Positions 1 to 5,704 of a stretch of 5,704 bases of DNA are shown here, piece after piece; the stretch's first letter is position 1; each line of letters begins with the position of its first letter. Under the pieces are notes generated by a model. It saw only the letters and a program-made list of their open reading frames with translations. It ran no database searches and was not told the origin of the DNA. Position numbers and translations under genes: made by a program. The stretch lies in IMG/VR virus record IMGVR_UViG_2602041568_000013. The stretch is one strand, 5' to 3'. This DNA comes from a virus. Its lineage: Duplodnaviria > Heunggongvirae > Uroviricota > Caudoviricetes.

Positions 1-216
1 TCTGAACATAAAACACTATCAGTAAGTTGGAGTCATTACCCGCCATTAAAATAGTGGACACTGATGAATACTCATTGTGCTTTCTTTGTTTAACATCTCC
101 ATGCTTATCCTCCTGAACATGTTCATCTGCCAAAATATCTTCTAATACTTTTCGTGACGCTATCCGGTTTATGACATACACTGATGTAAGATTTTTACTT
201 ACAGGAGAGCATAAAC

Positions 217-468
217 ATGGCCAGAACGATGACGGTTGATCTCGGCGATGAGTTGCGTGAATTTATCGAGTCCTTAATTGAATCCGGCGACTATCGCACC
301 CAAAGCGAAGTGATCCGTGAGTCACTGCGCTTACTTCGAGAAAAGCAAGCAGAGTCTCGCCTGCAAGCGTTACGTGACATGCTTGCAGAAGGGTTGAGTA
401 GTGGTGAAGCTCAGCCGTGGGAAAAGGACGCGTTTTTACGGAAGGTGAAAGCAGGGATAAGGAAATAA
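217..468 (+). CDS. ParD-family (ribbon-helix-helix) type II antitoxin, 83 aa
   Basis: Seen: ATG at 217 preceded by AGGAGAG (203-209); 83-aa ORF ending TAA 466-468. N-terminal region (TVDLGDELREFIESLIESGDYRTQSEVIRESLRLLRE) has the RHH/ParD-like pattern as I recall it; stop is 1 nt before the start of the downstream toxin-like ORF. Family assignment is from memory of ParD-like antitoxins, not a search. Confidence 0.8.
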   Translation: MARTMTVDLGDELREFIESLIESGDYRTQSEVIRESLRLLREKQAESRLQALRDMLAEGLSSGEAQPWEKDAFLRKVKAGIRK

Positions 469-469
469 T

Positions 470-766
470 GTGCGTATTATTAAACTCATGCCAAAAGCCA
501 ATGAGGATTTAGAAGGCATCTGGTATTACAGTTATCACCATTTCGGCGAACCACAAGCCGACAGATATGTGGAACATCTTTCAGACGTTCTCCAGATTCT
601 GAGTAACAATAATATAGGTACGCCCAGACCTGAATTAGGCGAAGGTATTTTTGTTCTTCCTTTTGAACGCCACGTAATTTATTTCCTGCAATCACCAGGG
701 GAAATTATCGTCATTCGTATCCTTAACCAAAACCAGGACGCCACCAGACATTTACACTGGAGCTAA
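470..766 (+). CDS. ParE/RelE-superfamily type II toxin, 98 aa (GTG start)
   Basis: Seen: GTG at 470 with AGGAA 5-6 nt upstream, arranged TAA-T-GTG with the antitoxin stop. N-terminus IKLMPKANEDLEGIWYYSYHHFGEPQADRYVEHL fits the ParE signature (x-L-x3-A-x2-DL-x2-IW-Y...G...QA-RY) as I recall it. The alternative ATG at 488 would cut into this conserved N-terminal segment, so GTG is preferred. Confidence 0.8.
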   Translation: MRIIKLMPKANEDLEGIWYYSYHHFGEPQADRYVEHLSDVLQILSNNNIGTPRPELGEGIFVLPFERHVIYFLQSPGEIIVIRILNQNQDATRHLHWS

Positions 767-868
767 ACCCGCCGATTGCGCTACAATGCCCGCCCTTAAA
801 GTGGGGGCACTCCCCTAACCGCTTCATCAGGTGAAGCGGATCTGACCTGTCATCAGAACGAGAGAATT

Positions 869-2230
869 ATGTTTAAACCGGAACTCCTTTCCCCGGCGGG
901 AACGCTGAAAAATATGCGTTACGCTTTCGCTTATGGCGCAGATGCTGTTTATGCGGGCCAGCCGCGTTACTCCCTGCGTGTGCGCAACAACGAATTCAAC
1001 CACGAAAACCTTCAGCTCGGCATCAATGAAGCCCACGCGCTGGGGAAAAAGTTTTATGTCGTGGTCAACATTGCCCCGCACAACGCCAAGCTGAAAACCT
1101 TTATCCGTGACCTGAAACCGGTGGTGGAAATGGGGCCGGATGCGCTGATTATGTCCGATCCAGGGCTGATTATGCTGGTGCGTGAGCACTTCCCTGAAAT
1201 GCCGATCCACCTCTCGGTGCAGGCTAACGCCGTAAACTGGGCGACGGTGAAATTCTGGCAGCAAATGGGCCTGACCCGCGTGATCCTCTCTCGCGAGCTG
1301 TCGCTGGAAGAGATTGAAGAGATCCGCAATCAGGTGCCGGATATGGAGATCGAGATCTTCGTTCACGGCGCACTGTGCATGGCCTACTCCGGTCGCTGCC
1401 TGCTCTCTGGCTATATCAACAAGCGCGATCCGAACCAGGGTACCTGCACCAACGCCTGCCGCTGGGAGTACAACGTCCAGGAAGGGAAAGAAGATGACGT
1501 TGGCAACATCGTACACAAGTACGAGCCGATTCCGGTGCAAAATGTTGAGCCGACGCTGGGTATCGGCGCGCCAACCGACAAAGTGTTTATGATCGAAGAA
1601 GCCCAGCGTCCGGGCGAGTATATGACCGCGTTTGAAGATGAGCACGGCACTTACATCATGAACTCGAAAGATCTGCGCGCCATCGCCCATGTAGAACGCC
1701 TGACCAAAATGGGCGTGCATTCGCTGAAAATCGAAGGCCGTACTAAATCTTTCTACTATTGCGCACGCACCGCACAGGTTTATCGTAAAGCTATCGATGA
1801 TGCCGCTGCGGGCAAACCGTTCGATACCAGCCTGCTGGAAACTCTGGAAGGTCTGGCGCATCGTGGCTATACCGAAGGTTTCCTGCGTCGTCATACTCAC
1901 GACGATTATCAGAACTACGAATACGGTTATTCAGTTTCTGACCGCCAGCAGTTTGTTGGTGAGTTTACCGGTGAGCGCAAGGGGGACCTCGCGGCGGTAG
2001 CGGTGAAAAATAAATTCTCCGTTGGCGACAGCCTTGAGCTGATGACGCCGCAAGGCAACATTAACTTTACCCTTGAGCACATGGAAAACGCCAAAGGCGA
2101 AGCTATGCCGGTAGCACCAGGCGATGGTTATACTGTGTGGCTCCCGGTGCCGCAGGATCTTGAGCTAAATTACGCGCTGCTGATGCGTAATTTCTCCGGG
2201 GAAACCACGCGTAACCCACACGGTAAGTGA
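869..2230 (+). CDS. yegQ: U32-family peptidase-like protein YegQ (TrhP; reported role in prephenate-dependent tRNA U34 hydroxylation), 453 aa
   Basis: Seen: 453-aa ORF, ATG 869, TGA 2228-2230, N-terminus MFKPELLSPAGTLKNM typical of U32 family and Cys-rich motif CMAYSGRCLLSGY...CTNACRW. Matches my recollection of E. coli YegQ; the K-12 order yegQ-cyaR-ogrK is consistent with what follows. Confidence 0.93.
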   Translation: MFKPELLSPAGTLKNMRYAFAYGADAVYAGQPRYSLRVRNNEFNHENLQLGINEAHALGKKFYVVVNIAPHNAKLKTFIRDLKPVVEMGPDALIMSDPGLIMLVREHFPEMPIHLSVQANAVNWATVKFWQQMGLTRVILSRELSLEEIEEIRNQVPDMEIEIFVHGALCMAYSGRCLLSGYINKRDPNQGTCTNACRWEYNVQEGKEDDVGNIVHKYEPIPVQNVEPTLGIGAPTDKVFMIEEAQRPGEYMTAFEDEHGTYIMNSKDLRAIAHVERLTKMGVHSLKIEGRTKSFYYCARTAQVYRKAIDDAAAGKPFDTSLLETLEGLAHRGYTEGFLRRHTHDDYQNYEYGYSVSDRQQFVGEFTGERKGDLAAVAVKNKFSVGDSLELMTPQGNINFTLEHMENAKGEAMPVAPGDGYTVWLPVPQDLELNYALLMRNFSGETTRNPHGK

Positions 2231-2307: not shown

Positions 2308-2314
2308 CCGTTTC

Positions 2315-2401
2315 GCTGAAAAACATAACCCATAAAATGCTAGCTGTACCAGGAACCACCTCCTTAGCCTGTGTAATCTCCCTTACACGGGCTTATTTTT
2401 T
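2315..2401 (+). ncRNA. cyaR: CyaR (RyeE) Hfq-dependent small RNA, about 87 nt
   Basis: Seen: sequence starting GCTGAAAAACATAACCCATAAAATGC..., containing the C-rich CCACCTCCTTA motif, ending in a 10-bp hairpin (2367-2376 / 2383-2392, one G-U pair) plus U-run TTATTTTTT (2393-2401). Matches my memory of E. coli CyaR located between yegQ and ogrK. Ends are approximate (a few nt). Confidence 0.8.
2375..2401. other. P2-type attachment-site core (27 bp), chromosome/prophage junction
   Basis: Seen: aatctcccttacacgggcttatttttt, whose reverse complement AAAAAATAAGCCCGTGTAAGGGAGATT equals the 27-nt P2 att core as I recall it. It overlaps the 3' half of the cyaR terminator and lies directly beside ogr, the gene at the end of an integrated P2 genome. 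Confidence 0.7.
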
Positions 2402-2463
2402 ACGTACAACAAATTGAAATAAAAGGATTTATTTCTGGTCACGTCCACACATTGACCACATCG

Positions 2464-2499
2464 ACAAAAAAAGCCCCTCGACTGAGGGGCTTTCTGTTT
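2464..2499. terminator. bidirectional intrinsic terminator (3' end of ogr; possible backstop for + strand transcription)
   Basis: Seen: perfect 7-bp GC-rich stem GCCCCTC (2473-2479) / GAGGGGC (2484-2490) with 4-nt loop, flanked by an A-run (2465-2472; U-run on the minus-strand transcript, just downstream of the ogr stop at 2504) and TTTCTGTTT (2491-2499) on the + strand. Confidence 0.7.
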
Positions 2500-2503
2500 G
2501 TAA

Positions 2504-2722
2504 TTACATCCACATAATTTGCTGCCCTGACGGCAACGGGTGCGGCCTCACGGCGTGGACTTCTCCCGGCTTCACGATGTATCGCTGTACCGACTCATAA
2601 GTGATGAACGTGGCGCTGCAATTCACGTTCTGGCACTGGTGATAACGCTCTTTTGTCGTGTCAGTGATATAGCGGCTTGTACGCGCATGTGCGGCATGCT
2701 GGCATAAAGGACAATGAAACAT
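2504..2722 (-). CDS. ogr: Ogr, P2 late-gene transcriptional activator (Cys4 zinc-finger), 72 aa
   Basis: Seen: 72-aa frame MFHCPLCQHAAHARTSRYITDTTKERYHQCQNVNCSATF... with CxxC...CxxxxC and GGAAGAGGTG ribosome-binding site upstream of ATG 2720-2722. The ORF track extends the frame to 2785 (93 aa); the 72-aa start is chosen because it matches canonical Ogr length and has the RBS. Confidence 0.9.
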   Translation of the reverse strand: MFHCPLCQHAAHARTSRYITDTTKERYHQCQNVNCSATFITYESVQRYIVKPGEVHAVRPHPLPSGQQIMWM

Positions 2723-2756
2723 CGCGAGCACCTCTTCCGGTTTTGTTGATGGTGCC

Positions 2757-2785
2757 ATTTTAGTTAATTTATCCTTATAAAACAA
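2757..2785 (-). promoter_or_regulatory. candidate sigma70 promoter for ogr
   Basis: Seen on minus strand: TTGTTT (2780-2785) - 17-nt spacer - TAAAAT (2757-2762), about 35 nt upstream of the ogr ATG. Inference from motif spacing only. Confidence 0.3.
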
Positions 2786-2803
2786 ACAGATAAAATAAAA
2801 ACA

Positions 2804-3967
2804 TTACTCATCATCTTCTGTTTCGTACTCCATATCAGAAAGCCTGACCTCAAGCTCCAAGGACGTCGTGAAGCCGCTATTATTCAGAAAATGTGTCACC
2901 TTAGTGATTGTCCAGTCCTGCTCGTCTATGACGCGCTTAAAGCCTGACACTCTGACCGGTGTTTCCGTGTAAATATCAGCACGACCAGTGGCAAGGCTGA
3001 TGGAGAACTCCGCAACGCCCCGTTGCAGTTTATCCCACTTCGCCTGAGCGGCGCGCATGGCCTGTGCTTTCGTGGCATATACCGTAGTCAGGGCAAAAAC
3101 GTTGTCAGCTTCACCGGCCATGTATTCACCTTCGCGCGCTTCCGGTACTTTTGGCGCTTTCTTCTGCCTGACCGGTTTCGCTTTCGGGTGCTCCAGTGCG
3201 CGCAGGTGTTTTTCTTTCTTTTTGCGTTTCAGTTTTACCTTCTGCTTTTGCGGCTTCGGGTCTTTGGTGTGTAACCACTTTGCCGTTACGCCGGTGTAGG
3301 CTCCACGGTCAGCAATCGCAAAATGATGGCGGTCACCGTCGCTGCGGGTGATGGTGACCTGCGGGATTTTTTTACCGCTGGCCGTCACTCCCTGCCCCGC
3401 TTTGAGAAACAGCAGTTTTCCCATTTTTACCGACACCTCACCGCCGTTGCGTTCTGCAAGACGGGTCAGAAATTTCGCATCAGACTCCTGCGACTGGTCG
3501 ATGTGCGGGATTTTAATTCCGGCCAGTGACGGAGCGACACTGGCTTCCAGCCTGTTACGGGAGGCTATCGCCTCAACAATCGCACCGAGCGTGGTGTCAT
3601 GCCATGAGCCTTCACGGCGGGAATTGAGCGTCCCGCGAAAATCTGCACTCCGTGCGCGGATGGTGACCACATCCGGTGCGCCCCGGTGTTCAACCTCATC
3701 AACGGTAAATTTCCCTTTGCATACCAGGGCAAAACCTTTCCAGCCGATATACACCGTCAGGACAGCGCCACGAATCGGTAGTCCGACCTGCCCGTCGGCA
3801 TCGTTCAGTTCAATATCAAGCTGGTCAGCCTCAAAGCCCCGGTTATCCGTCAGGGTCATGCTCATCAGACGGTCGCTGATATTGCCGGTAATATCCCTGC
3901 TGTCGAGTATCAGCATGTAATCCGGCGTCAGCGTACTGCCTGCATCAAATGTCAGTGCATCCAGCAT
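2804..3967 (-). CDS. D: P2 gpD-like tail protein (phage late control D family), 387 aa
   Basis: Seen: 387-aa ORF MLDALTFDAGSTLTPDYMLILDSRD...; length and N-terminus match my recollection of P2 gpD; position between U and ogr matches the P2 order T-U-D-ogr. Start ATG (3965-3967) overlaps the U stop. Confidence 0.93.
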   Translation of the reverse strand: MLDALTFDAGSTLTPDYMLILDSRDITGNISDRLMSMTLTDNRGFEADQLDIELNDADGQVGLPIRGAVLTVYIGWKGFALVCKGKFTVDEVEHRGAPDVVTIRARSADFRGTLNSRREGSWHDTTLGAIVEAIASRNRLEASVAPSLAGIKIPHIDQSQESDAKFLTRLAERNGGEVSVKMGKLLFLKAGQGVTASGKKIPQVTITRSDGDRHHFAIADRGAYTGVTAKWLHTKDPKPQKQKVKLKRKKKEKHLRALEHPKAKPVRQKKAPKVPEAREGEYMAGEADNVFALTTVYATKAQAMRAAQAKWDKLQRGVAEFSISLATGRADIYTETPVRVSGFKRVIDEQDWTITKVTHFLNNSGFTTSLELEVRLSDMEYETEDDE

Positions 3968-4446
3968 TATCCCGCCCCCGTCATACCCGTGAATTTAGTC
4001 GCCATACTGCCAGCCTTACCGATGAGCGATTCCGCCTGTTTACCGATATCGCCATAAAGCGCGGCCAGTGATTCATCAACGCGGGTGAGCGACAGCGTAA
4101 AATCAATTTTCCGGGGTGTGCCGTCTGCAAAGAAAATACTCCCTGTTTCACTCACCCTGCTGATGACATACATGCCGTAAATCATGCCGGTGCCATCCAG
4201 CAACGGCCACGCCCGCCCCTCCTCTGCCATCAGCCTGAGCGTGGTCATCGTCAGCTTGCCGCCGGTCAGTTCGGGATAAAGCACACCGGCAAGCGTGATG
4301 TTTTCCTCACCCACACCGAGAAACTGAAAAGCGTCCCGTTTACCGATACGGGAATTTGACGGCCAGCGATAATCTGATTCACGCTGCATGGTCTGGTGTG
4401 GCAGCGTCTGGCGCATAAAAACAAACATACCTAACGCGAGCATCAT
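3967..4446 (-). CDS. U: P2 gpU-like tail protein, 159 aa
   Basis: Seen: 159-aa ORF MMLALGMFVFMRQTLPHQ... with GGAGGTGA RBS upstream; length matches P2 gpU as recalled; stop TAA 3967-3969 overlaps the D start (TAATG). Confidence 0.92.
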   Translation of the reverse strand: MMLALGMFVFMRQTLPHQTMQRESDYRWPSNSRIGKRDAFQFLGVGEENITLAGVLYPELTGGKLTMTTLRLMAEEGRAWPLLDGTGMIYGMYVISRVSETGSIFFADGTPRKIDFTLSLTRVDESLAALYGDIGKQAESLIGKAGSMATKFTGMTGAG

Positions 4447-4460
4447 TTTTCGTCACCTCC

Positions 4461-5660
4461 TTAACCGTCATGCATCATGCTGGCACGGGCGCGCGCACGT
4501 TTATCCCGCTCGTATTTTTCGAGCGCATCCTGTAACTGGCGGTCGAGCTGTGTCCCCGGCGCAGTACCACCCGTCAGGCTGATGTGATATTCGTTTTTAC
4601 TCTGGTCTACATAAGAGCGGCCAGCCGGTGCCGTGACCGGCTGATAAGCCTGATAACCTGCATAAGAGCTGGTCGCCGGAATATAACCACCGCTGCCATA
4701 CGTGGCGGCTTGAGTTCTGGCGGCGGTCTGGTCAAGTGTGTCTGACTCTTTGTTGATAACACCGAGTTTTTCCAGTACCCAGTCAATACCACTGCGCAGT
4801 TTGTTGAACGCATTAAGCGGCAGCATCAGCGCGTCAGCCAGTGCCTGCCCGAACATGACGCCCGTGTCACGGCAACGGTTCAGGGTGTCCTGGGTGGCTT
4901 TGACCGGGGCGATCAGGTTTTTAAACCACTGCCACGCGGCCTGTAACTTTTCACCCAGCCAGTCAAACACCGGTTTAAGTGGCGTGAACAGTTCCCCCAC
5001 CGGCGCAAATGCCGCTTTCAGCCCTTCCACCACACCGCCAAAGAATGCGCTGACAGGCTCCCAGTATTTACGGATAAGCAACGCCCCGGCGACAATTGCG
5101 GCCACCACGGCCACAACCGGCCAGCTAATCGCCCCGATGGCCGTCATAACAGCACTGCCAACCGTCGTGAAGATTGCCCCCATTGCGCCTGCTGCCGCGA
5201 TGATGGCATTGATGCCAGTGATAACCGGCCAGGCTACAAGACCAATGGCACCGATGATGCCAATAAGCGCCAGCGCGCCACCGGCAATGATGCCAATGGT
5301 TGACGCCAGTGATTTGTTTTTCTGTATCCAGCCGTCGAGTTTTAACACATACTTTGTGGCCGTCTGTGTGAGCTTACGCAGTGCGCCTTCCTGCTGGTCA
5401 AACAGGTCTGTCCCTACCGCCTCATAAGCGGACTGAAACTCCTTAAAGTCACCGCCGAGGTTGTCCTGCATGATATTTACCAGCTCGGCAGTCTTCCCGT
5501 CTGAGGCTTTAAACGCAGCGGTCAGTTTGTCCAGCTTTCCGGTTGAGGCGGCAGTCATCAGCACGGCGGCGGCTGAGCTGGCCTCCTCCCCGAAAATAGT
5601 TTTCATATATTCAGCCTGCTGGGCAGTACCGAGCCGGTTTTTCTCAAAGCTGGCCTGCAT
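4461..5660 (-). CDS. T: phage tail tape measure protein (gpT-like), 399-aa C-terminal reading frame; true 5' boundary unresolved
   Basis: Seen: long Gly/Ala/Ile-rich hydrophobic block (ORF residues about 118-195) typical of tape measure proteins; position immediately upstream of U; stop 14 nt before the U start. An in-frame TAG lies 9 codons upstream of the first ATG (5688-5690) while the other two minus frames are open to the window edge, so the gene may be frameshifted, truncated or genuinely short. Confidence 0.8.
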   Translation of the reverse strand: MQASFEKNRLGTAQQAEYMKTIFGEEASSAAAVLMTAASTGKLDKLTAAFKASDGKTAELVNIMQDNLGGDFKEFQSAYEAVGTDLFDQQEGALRKLTQTATKYVLKLDGWIQKNKSLASTIGIIAGGALALIGIIGAIGLVAWPVITGINAIIAAAGAMGAIFTTVGSAVMTAIGAISWPVVAVVAAIVAGALLIRKYWEPVSAFFGGVVEGLKAAFAPVGELFTPLKPVFDWLGEKLQAAWQWFKNLIAPVKATQDTLNRCRDTGVMFGQALADALMLPLNAFNKLRSGIDWVLEKLGVINKESDTLDQTAARTQAATYGSGGYIPATSSYAGYQAYQPVTAPAGRSYVDQSKNEYHISLTGGTAPGTQLDRQLQDALEKYERDKRARARASMMHDG

Positions 5661-5704
5661 TTTGAACCGCCCCGGGAATCCTGGAGACTAAACTCCCTGA
5701 GAAA

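Follow-up and report, generated by a model that had tools for sequence, protein, structure and literature searches.

An apparently intact ParD/ParE toxin-antitoxin operon in the strain-variable yegP-yegQ spacer of Escherichia coli

The two small genes upstream of trhP/yegQ in the window, by which we mean the whole 5,704-nt stretch of DNA analysed here (IMG/VR record IMGVR_UViG_2602041568_000013), are, as judged from their sequences, an intact ParD/ParE type II toxin-antitoxin operon that is already annotated in RefSeq. We consider it likely that this is an intact chromosomal PF03693/PF05016 operon which is autorepressed, poisons gyrase and is addictive, and which is plasmid-derived, has long resided in its slot and has been eroded by losing its toxin before, or along with, its antitoxin. 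The ParD/ParE pair is already known. It carries little weight as a discovery, because it belongs to a standard family that is named by RefSeq in more than 1800 complete genomes. What the locus adds is the yegP-yegQ spacer as a three-state slot that is either empty, occupied by parDE or occupied by a PcfJ/DUF1266/DUF4034 island. These states are linked by visible deletion scars, and the slot therefore provides a clean natural example of toxin-first loss of chromosomal toxin-antitoxin modules.

The parD antitoxin gene (217-468, plus strand) encodes 83 aa from an ATG start, with AGGAG at 203-207, and the parE toxin gene (470-766, plus strand) encodes 98 aa from a GTG start. The toxin is identical to RefSeq WP_001220181.1 and PGAP places a CDS at the same coordinates. 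Both ORFs are co-oriented with the antitoxin gene first, and they lie exactly where the original prediction had put two tightly coupled genes arranged as TAA-T-GTG: the stop codon TAA of parD (466-468) is followed by a single T (469) and by the GTG start of parE (470-472). A ribosome-binding site for parE, AAGGA (459-463, plus strand), can be read from the sequence within the last codons of parD, 6 nt ahead of the GTG at 470, and indicates translational coupling of parE.

A profile search bore out the ribbon-helix-helix antitoxin and ParE toxin that had been read from the letters, with scores for PF03693, TIGR02606 and PF05016 far above their cut-offs. ParD matched PF03693 over residues 1-78 (69.2 bits, cut-off 21, E 4.3e-19) and TIGR02606 over residues 4-74 (88.4 bits, cut-off 46.2, E 2.3e-25), and its residues 2-53 could be aligned with the crystallised RHH fragment of PrpA (7ycv, E 8e-18). 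The generic RHH_1 model reached 18.6 bits on ParD, slightly below its cut-off of 20.5. ParE matched PF05016 with 51.3 bits (cut-off 23, E 1.8e-13), where residues 4-90 cover profile positions 1-88 of 89; no NCBIfam model matched ParE.

RefSeq/PGAP names the two proteins 'type II toxin-antitoxin system ParD family antitoxin' and 'RelE/ParE family toxin', and the latter name would also suit a RelE-like ribosome-dependent mRNA endonuclease that does not poison gyrase. Because PF05016 also covers RelE-type proteins, the match to this family alone does not discriminate between the two. The solved structures, however, argue against an endonuclease. Residues 4-95 of the 98 in ParE are colinear with residues 7-99 of PrpT (E 2.3e-12), 7-98 of MtParE1 (E 5.8e-8) and 18-109 of CcParE1 (E 2.3e-7), and matches were also obtained to VcParE2 (E 6.8e-7) and to 6x0a, a 'plasmid stabilization system' chain (E 0.004). 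Five solved structures match ParE with E < 0.01, all of them ParE-type and end to end, so that there is no room for the extra C-terminal helix of RelE; no RelE, YoeB or HigB chain was among the matches at E up to 1. The partner protein points in the same direction, since PF03693 is the second most common antitoxin family paired with ParE toxins (about 26%, PMC7848731). We regard a RelE-like activity as very improbable, and the end-to-end matches to solved ParD-ParE complexes settle, in our reading, the family membership of the pair as one of ParE with its ParD.

The base composition had been estimated by eye as low 40s versus mid-50s percent G+C for the cassette and yegQ. When computed, this held for parE (41.8%) and for the leader upstream of parD, but not for parD itself (50.0%). 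The cassette as a whole has a G+C content of 45.5%, the variable segment 41-766 of 43.3% and yegQ of 54.2%, and GC3 amounts to 0.51 in parD, 0.40 in parE and 0.64 in yegQ.

The AT-rich non-coding leader (41-216, plus strand, 176 nt, 36.4% G+C) presumably holds the parDE promoter and operator. It is conserved among the Escherichia alleles, and the plasmid relatives share only the part from about 176 onward. A consensus promoter scan of 1-900 yielded no canonical sigma-70 site for parDE on the plus strand. In the K. pneumoniae plasmid homologue, the candidate -10 hexamer TACACT (177-182, plus strand) has a perfect TATAAT as its counterpart in the alignment. One promoter-like match and several terminator-like matches in 1-900 were discarded; they lie on the minus strand, within coding sequence, and occur at chance frequency. 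The inverted repeat TGTAAG-N7-CTTACA (185-203), which is part of the inverted repeat I1, is a candidate operator for the ribbon-helix-helix of ParD. Its GTAAG...CTTAC core is unchanged in all six of the chromosomal and plasmid copies compared, and the DNA around them is not alignable. As PrpA footprints on its own promoter (PMC7848731), ParD by analogy probably represses its own operon through this repeat. Two further elements of the leader were noted. A perfect 12-nt palindrome, TGAACATGTTCA, at 114-125 is kept in all Escherichia alleles and absent from the plasmid relatives. An 18-aa ORF on the minus strand (102 to 46) with a perfect AGGAGG was rejected as a gene, because a 1-nt deletion in the majority allele stops it after three codons and the frame differs elsewhere, with other species reading a different one.

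In every examined genome with the allele of the window (XH990, PKF8 and O55:H7 CB9615), parD is marked by PGAP as a frameshifted pseudogene; in the locus extracted from O55:H7 CB9615 the flagged gene lies at 1522-1819. In the majority allele, a 1-nt deletion before the start codon (AAAC-ATG to AAA-ATG) brings an ATG further upstream, at window 171, into frame. PGAP calls a 98-aa ParD from this ATG, and the allele of the window is judged against that longer model. ATG 171 is without a ribosome-binding site and is out of frame in E. whittamii and E. ruysiae, as it is in the window, and the family models and solved homologues start at the 83-aa start. Moreover, the 83-aa ParD is identical in the four E. 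coli alleles examined, which show synonymous differences only. The flag looks like an artefact of the longest-ORF model. The supported 83-aa start, the lack of a ribosome-binding site at ATG 171 and the invariance of ParD argue that the module in the window is intact, and with the flag being such an artefact, parDE of this allele is to be counted as intact in toxin-antitoxin surveys.

We searched for the cassette (window 150-770) in 5426 complete E. coli genomes and found it in 1845 (34%); in each of them one copy lies on the chromosome, in the yegP-yegQ slot. This confirms the strain-variable position that had been proposed. The allele group of the window (at least 99% identity) comprises 106 genomes, including O55:H7 CB9615, and the majority allele group (~98.6% identity) includes O26, O111, O104:H4 and O121 strains; ParDE is prevalent in B1-type and O55:H7-type strains. 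Of the 5426 genomes, 3182 have the K-12-type empty junction, and about 400 have neither this junction nor the cassette. In K-12, as the original prediction had stated, yegP immediately precedes trhP/yegQ; the spacer between them is 146 nt long. Alignment to the K-12 region showed that a cassette-bearing segment of ~770-780 bp stands in place of 21 nt of this spacer, and that the DNA shared with K-12 begins at window 778, which sets the right boundary of the variable segment. In UPEC 26-1 and AHB2, yegP and yegQ are separated by a ~5-kb island of four genes (PcfJ-domain, DUF1266, DUF4034 and hypothetical; 1881-6596 of the extracted UPEC 26-1 locus).

Two strains deserve separate mention. O157:H7 DEC4E has the K-12-type empty junction, in contrast to O55:H7 CB9615 with its cassette. 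The locus is ~60 kb from rfb-gnd in K-12 coordinates and may lie inside the segment that was swapped in the O55-to-O157 switch; if it does lie there, the empty state of this O157:H7 strain would have arisen by recombinational allele replacement and not by deletion. In E. coli HS-01, the yegP-yegQ interval (2313-3194 of the extracted locus) is a homopolymer-rich scramble of cassette length, and most likely reflects an error in local assembly or polishing and not biology.

The right end of the variable segment (748-777, plus strand) consists of the last 19 nt of parE and 11 nt downstream of it, and is kept as a scar in the island strains. UPEC 26-1 matches window 748-900 at 99.3% directly beside the PcfJ/DUF1266/DUF4034 island, and this parE-tail scar (2971-3123 of the extracted locus) forms the island's junction on the yegQ side. 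The cassette was also found in the yegP-yegQ slot of other Escherichia, by a single genome scan that brought up no E. albertii, E. fergusonii or E. marmotae. In E. whittamii neither ORF is disrupted; in E. ruysiae parD carries one nonsense codon and parE two. In Escherichia sp. E1V33 the left leader is still present together with the last 130 nt of parE, and a single deletion has removed parD and the first 164 nt of parE. In strain A41, a genuine +1 frameshift was found in a T-run of parE with parD intact. The 21-nt filler of K-12 resembles the degenerate parE tail of E1V33, and this short alignment is only suggestive of a parE-tail remnant in K-12. Occupation of this slot in E. whittamii and E. 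ruysiae, together with the parE remnants in E1V33 and UPEC 26-1, indicates that the variable state came mainly from loss; presence of the cassette is thus the older state and its absence mostly the result of loss. The horizontal acquisition that had been suggested from composition is not supported as a recent insertion, given the shared slot and the parE remnants in E1V33 and the island strains.

At synonymous sites, parDE of the window diverges by 0.16 from E. whittamii and by 0.10 from E. ruysiae. For yegQ this divergence is about twice as high (0.37 and 0.29, respectively). In the comparison with E. whittamii, 17 of 117 synonymous sites differ in parDE versus 90 of 310 in yegQ (z ~3), and yegP, with 0.5-1.1 between Escherichia species, lies far above parDE. 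Inter-lineage recombination or an unusual constraint is a possible reason for the low value of parDE. The cassette is old in the genus and may have moved between lineages by recombination of its flanks. We propose that a plasmid-type parDE would have settled between yegP and yegQ before the split of E. whittamii, E. ruysiae and E. coli, or would have spread among them by flank recombination. Its presence/absence polymorphism would now be maintained by addiction, and the module would erode through mutations that delete or disable the toxin before the antitoxin or both at once.

At the molecular level, ParD dimers would bind TGTAAG-N7-CTTACA upstream of parD via their N-terminal ribbon-helix-helix and repress the operon, and the C-terminal half of ParD would wrap and neutralise ParE. 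Upon depletion of the labile ParD, free ParE would poison DNA gyrase by stabilising cleavage complexes, resulting in the SOS response, filamentation and death. As the toxin would be freed on ParD depletion, the module would behave as a selfish 'addictive' element and not serve a housekeeping function.

The closest characterised relative is PrpT/PrpA of the Pseudoalteromonas rubra conjugative plasmid pMBL6842 (PDB 7ycs/7ycu), which has the same Pfam pair and gene order and sizes of 98 and 86 aa compared to 98 and 83 aa here. PrpA (7ycs) is 61% identical to ParD over 77 aa (E 1.9e-27) and PrpT is 33% identical to ParE over 93 aa (E 2.3e-12), each being the best match to a solved structure. PrpT is toxic and causes filamentation in E. 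coli, and PrpA neutralises PrpT and represses its own promoter (PMC7848731). The PrpA motif TTTG(T/A)AAT, however, differs from the TGTAAG-N7-CTTACA that is conserved here. Moreover, PrpAT is plasmid-borne and PrpA also binds the origin iterons and thereby sets the plasmid copy number (PMC7848731, PMC9731233), whereas the cassette studied here is chromosomal with no replicon nearby. Gyrase is not mentioned for PrpT in PMC7848731 or PMC9731233.

The same two-family architecture with full-length alignments is found in M. tuberculosis ParDE1 (8c24), C. crescentus ParDE1 (3kxe) and V. cholerae ParDE2 (7r5a), although by E-value these are distant relatives (6e-8 to 7e-7 for ParE against MtParE1, CcParE1 and VcParE2; 3e-12 to 9e-11 for ParD against their antitoxins). 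Passages of PMC3001019 and PMC10899793 describe VcParE2 and MtParE1 as demonstrated gyrase poisons, and by analogy ParE probably poisons DNA gyrase too. These relatives have a Trp at the alpha1-alpha2 loop, in contrast to Phe25 in the ParE of the window. Phe25 (in YHHFGEPQA) aligns with the Trp of MtParE1 and is equivalent to Trp25 of VcParE2; PrpT also has a Phe, and the residue is poorly conserved. For full toxicity of VcParE2 a Trp or Tyr is needed, and W25F lowers it (bioRxiv 10.1101/2025.07.24.666505).

The Phe in place of Trp/Tyr would fit a domesticated or attenuated relic, in which the toxicity of ParE is mostly lost and the pair persists by drift or by another role of ParD, for example as a regulator. 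Weak or protective chromosomal ParE toxins such as P. aeruginosa ParE1 are described in passages of PMC6368863. Loss and decay have also been frequent, as seen in the 3182 empty junctions and ~400 genomes with other content, the nonsense codons of E. ruysiae and the degraded copies on IncFIA/FIB plasmids and in Pluralibacter. On the other hand, conservation of both proteins is strong across E. coli and E. whittamii. Between the E. coli alleles, ParD (100% identical) shows 0 non-synonymous and 3 synonymous differences and ParE 0 and 2, and the dN/dS against E. whittamii is ~0.07; both genes are full length and under purifying selection. In addition, parE was always disabled at least as much as parD in the decay patterns seen (A41, E1V33 and E. 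ruysiae, as well as UPEC 26-1 and K-12, of which nothing but the parE tail would be left), as expected if parE is still dangerous. With the toxin disabled first or together with the antitoxin, the decay fits an active toxin, and we consider a relic unlikely compared to an operon that still encodes a working toxin.

The nearest relatives outside Escherichia chromosomes are located on conjugative IncF plasmids with ~70% nucleotide identity. The below-average G+C noted in the original prediction was confirmed as well. In K. pneumoniae pINF078-VP (IncFIB/FII), ParD is 92% and ParE 65% identical to the proteins of the window, and the same operator-like repeat is found. On this plasmid parD overlaps parE by 14 nt, whereas the chromosomal genes here are separated by a gap of 1 nt. 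E. coli plasmids of the IncFIA/FIB type carry a degraded copy, in which parE is split and ParD ends early, at 60 aa (3045-3589 and 4943-5920 of the extracted locus). This degraded copy is located ~1.3 kb from a RepB-family initiator gene. In Pluralibacter gergoviae, a decayed copy occupies a different chromosomal site in dnaB-alr-tyrB, between alr and tyrB (3250-3800 of the extracted locus). The parDE subfamily seems to be decay-prone wherever it lands, and an original plasmid origin of the chromosomal parDE is plausible on the grounds of these similarities.

Other plasmid systems were considered as well. The archetype, RK2 ParD/ParE, and also ParDE-I of the IncI1 plasmid pJIE512b and the ParDE of Yersinia pYV use ParE-family toxins for plasmid maintenance (PMC6614396, PMC10203498). 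The ParD of RK2 belongs to a different antitoxin family, PF09386 (PMC7848731), compared to PF03693 here. ParDE-I of pJIE512b was rejected as close kin, as it is 15% identical to CcParE1 and thus of a different subfamily, and so was the ParDE of Yersinia pYV, whose ParE is ~33% identical to that of the window. Literature searches on the ParD/ParE pairs of IncF plasmids retrieved no characterisation, and those on yegP/yegQ with toxin-antitoxin systems and on the RefSeq accessions retrieved nothing specific.

The 92% identity of ParD to its plasmid relative, the largely conserved C-terminal, toxin-binding third and the same operator-like repeat might allow the chromosomal ParD to cross-talk with the parDE of IncF plasmids. 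It would then neutralise the plasmid-encoded ParE and help to repress the plasmid operon, a form of 'anti-addiction' that we put forward as a distinctly speculative possibility. By analogy to PrpA, ParD might also interfere with the replication or copy-number control of IncF plasmids. If true, such cross-talk gives the polymorphism of the cassette a selective meaning in plasmid-rich lineages.

The window also contains the end of a P2-type prophage, and the cassette, beside a prophage integration hotspot, had been proposed to act in island stabilisation or abortive infection. Type II toxin-antitoxin systems can act in phage defence, and the cassette lies 1.5 kb from cyaR, where the P2-type prophage is integrated in the window. 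However, the core gene trhP and cyaR stand between the two. Among the 5426 genomes, a P2-type prophage end beside yegQ is present in 723 and the cassette in 1845; both occur together in 263, compared to 246 expected (odds ratio 1.13, chi-square ~2.1). The count of 263 was obtained with a composite query, because coverage of the whole window cannot separate genomes with the toxin-antitoxin genes from those without. Moreover, XH990 has the cassette without the prophage and K-12 a P2 remnant without the cassette. A PADLOC scan of both proteins returned 0 families at E up to 0.1, and in the phage collection there was a single partial match to the cassette, at 72% identity, in a 2-kb fragment of a Salmonella phage, which argues that the cassette is not phage cargo. 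The cassette is unconnected to the neighbouring prophage, and neither the functional link to the hotspot nor the role in abortive infection was supported. An anti-phage or prophage-stabilising module tied to the P2 integration site is hard to reconcile with these observations, and we give it very little credence.

To the right of the cassette, trhP/yegQ (869-2230) matched NF011996 with 876 bits, and the CyaR sRNA (2313-2398) matched RF00112 with 100.7 bits, lying between trhP and the prophage end. The latter is encoded on the minus strand and comprises ogr, gpD, gpU and the C-terminal part of the tape-measure gene. The listed ORF of ogr has 93 aa from a TTG, and since the NCBIfam model matches residues 22-93, a 72-aa product that begins at 2722 (2504-2722, minus strand) is the probable form of this gene. 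The tape-measure gene (4461-5660, minus strand) is interrupted by the terminal 41 nt of an IS3-family element (5664-5704), which we take to be IS629-like, and keeps only its C-terminal 399 codons in the window, so that the prophage is probably defective. The IS end is a multi-copy sequence that is elsewhere found directly upstream of an IS3-family transposase. The junction between the tape-measure gene and the IS3-family end is common to no complete genome in the collection, the best matches ending at 5662.

At the left edge, the end of an IS1 element (1-40) truncates the variable segment and is located outside the toxin-antitoxin module. Intact strains such as XH990 have ~33 nt more of the cassette leader and the yegP terminator at the place where the window has IS1. 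In PKF8, an annotated IS1A transposase ends 5 nt to the left of the equivalent position (3328-4025 of the extracted locus), and the IS1 has deleted the 3' end of yegP. The window and PKF8 represent two IS1 events, independent or successive, at almost the same point. With IS1 at its left edge and the IS3-family end at its right edge, the window has the appearance of an assembly contig with an IS copy at each end.
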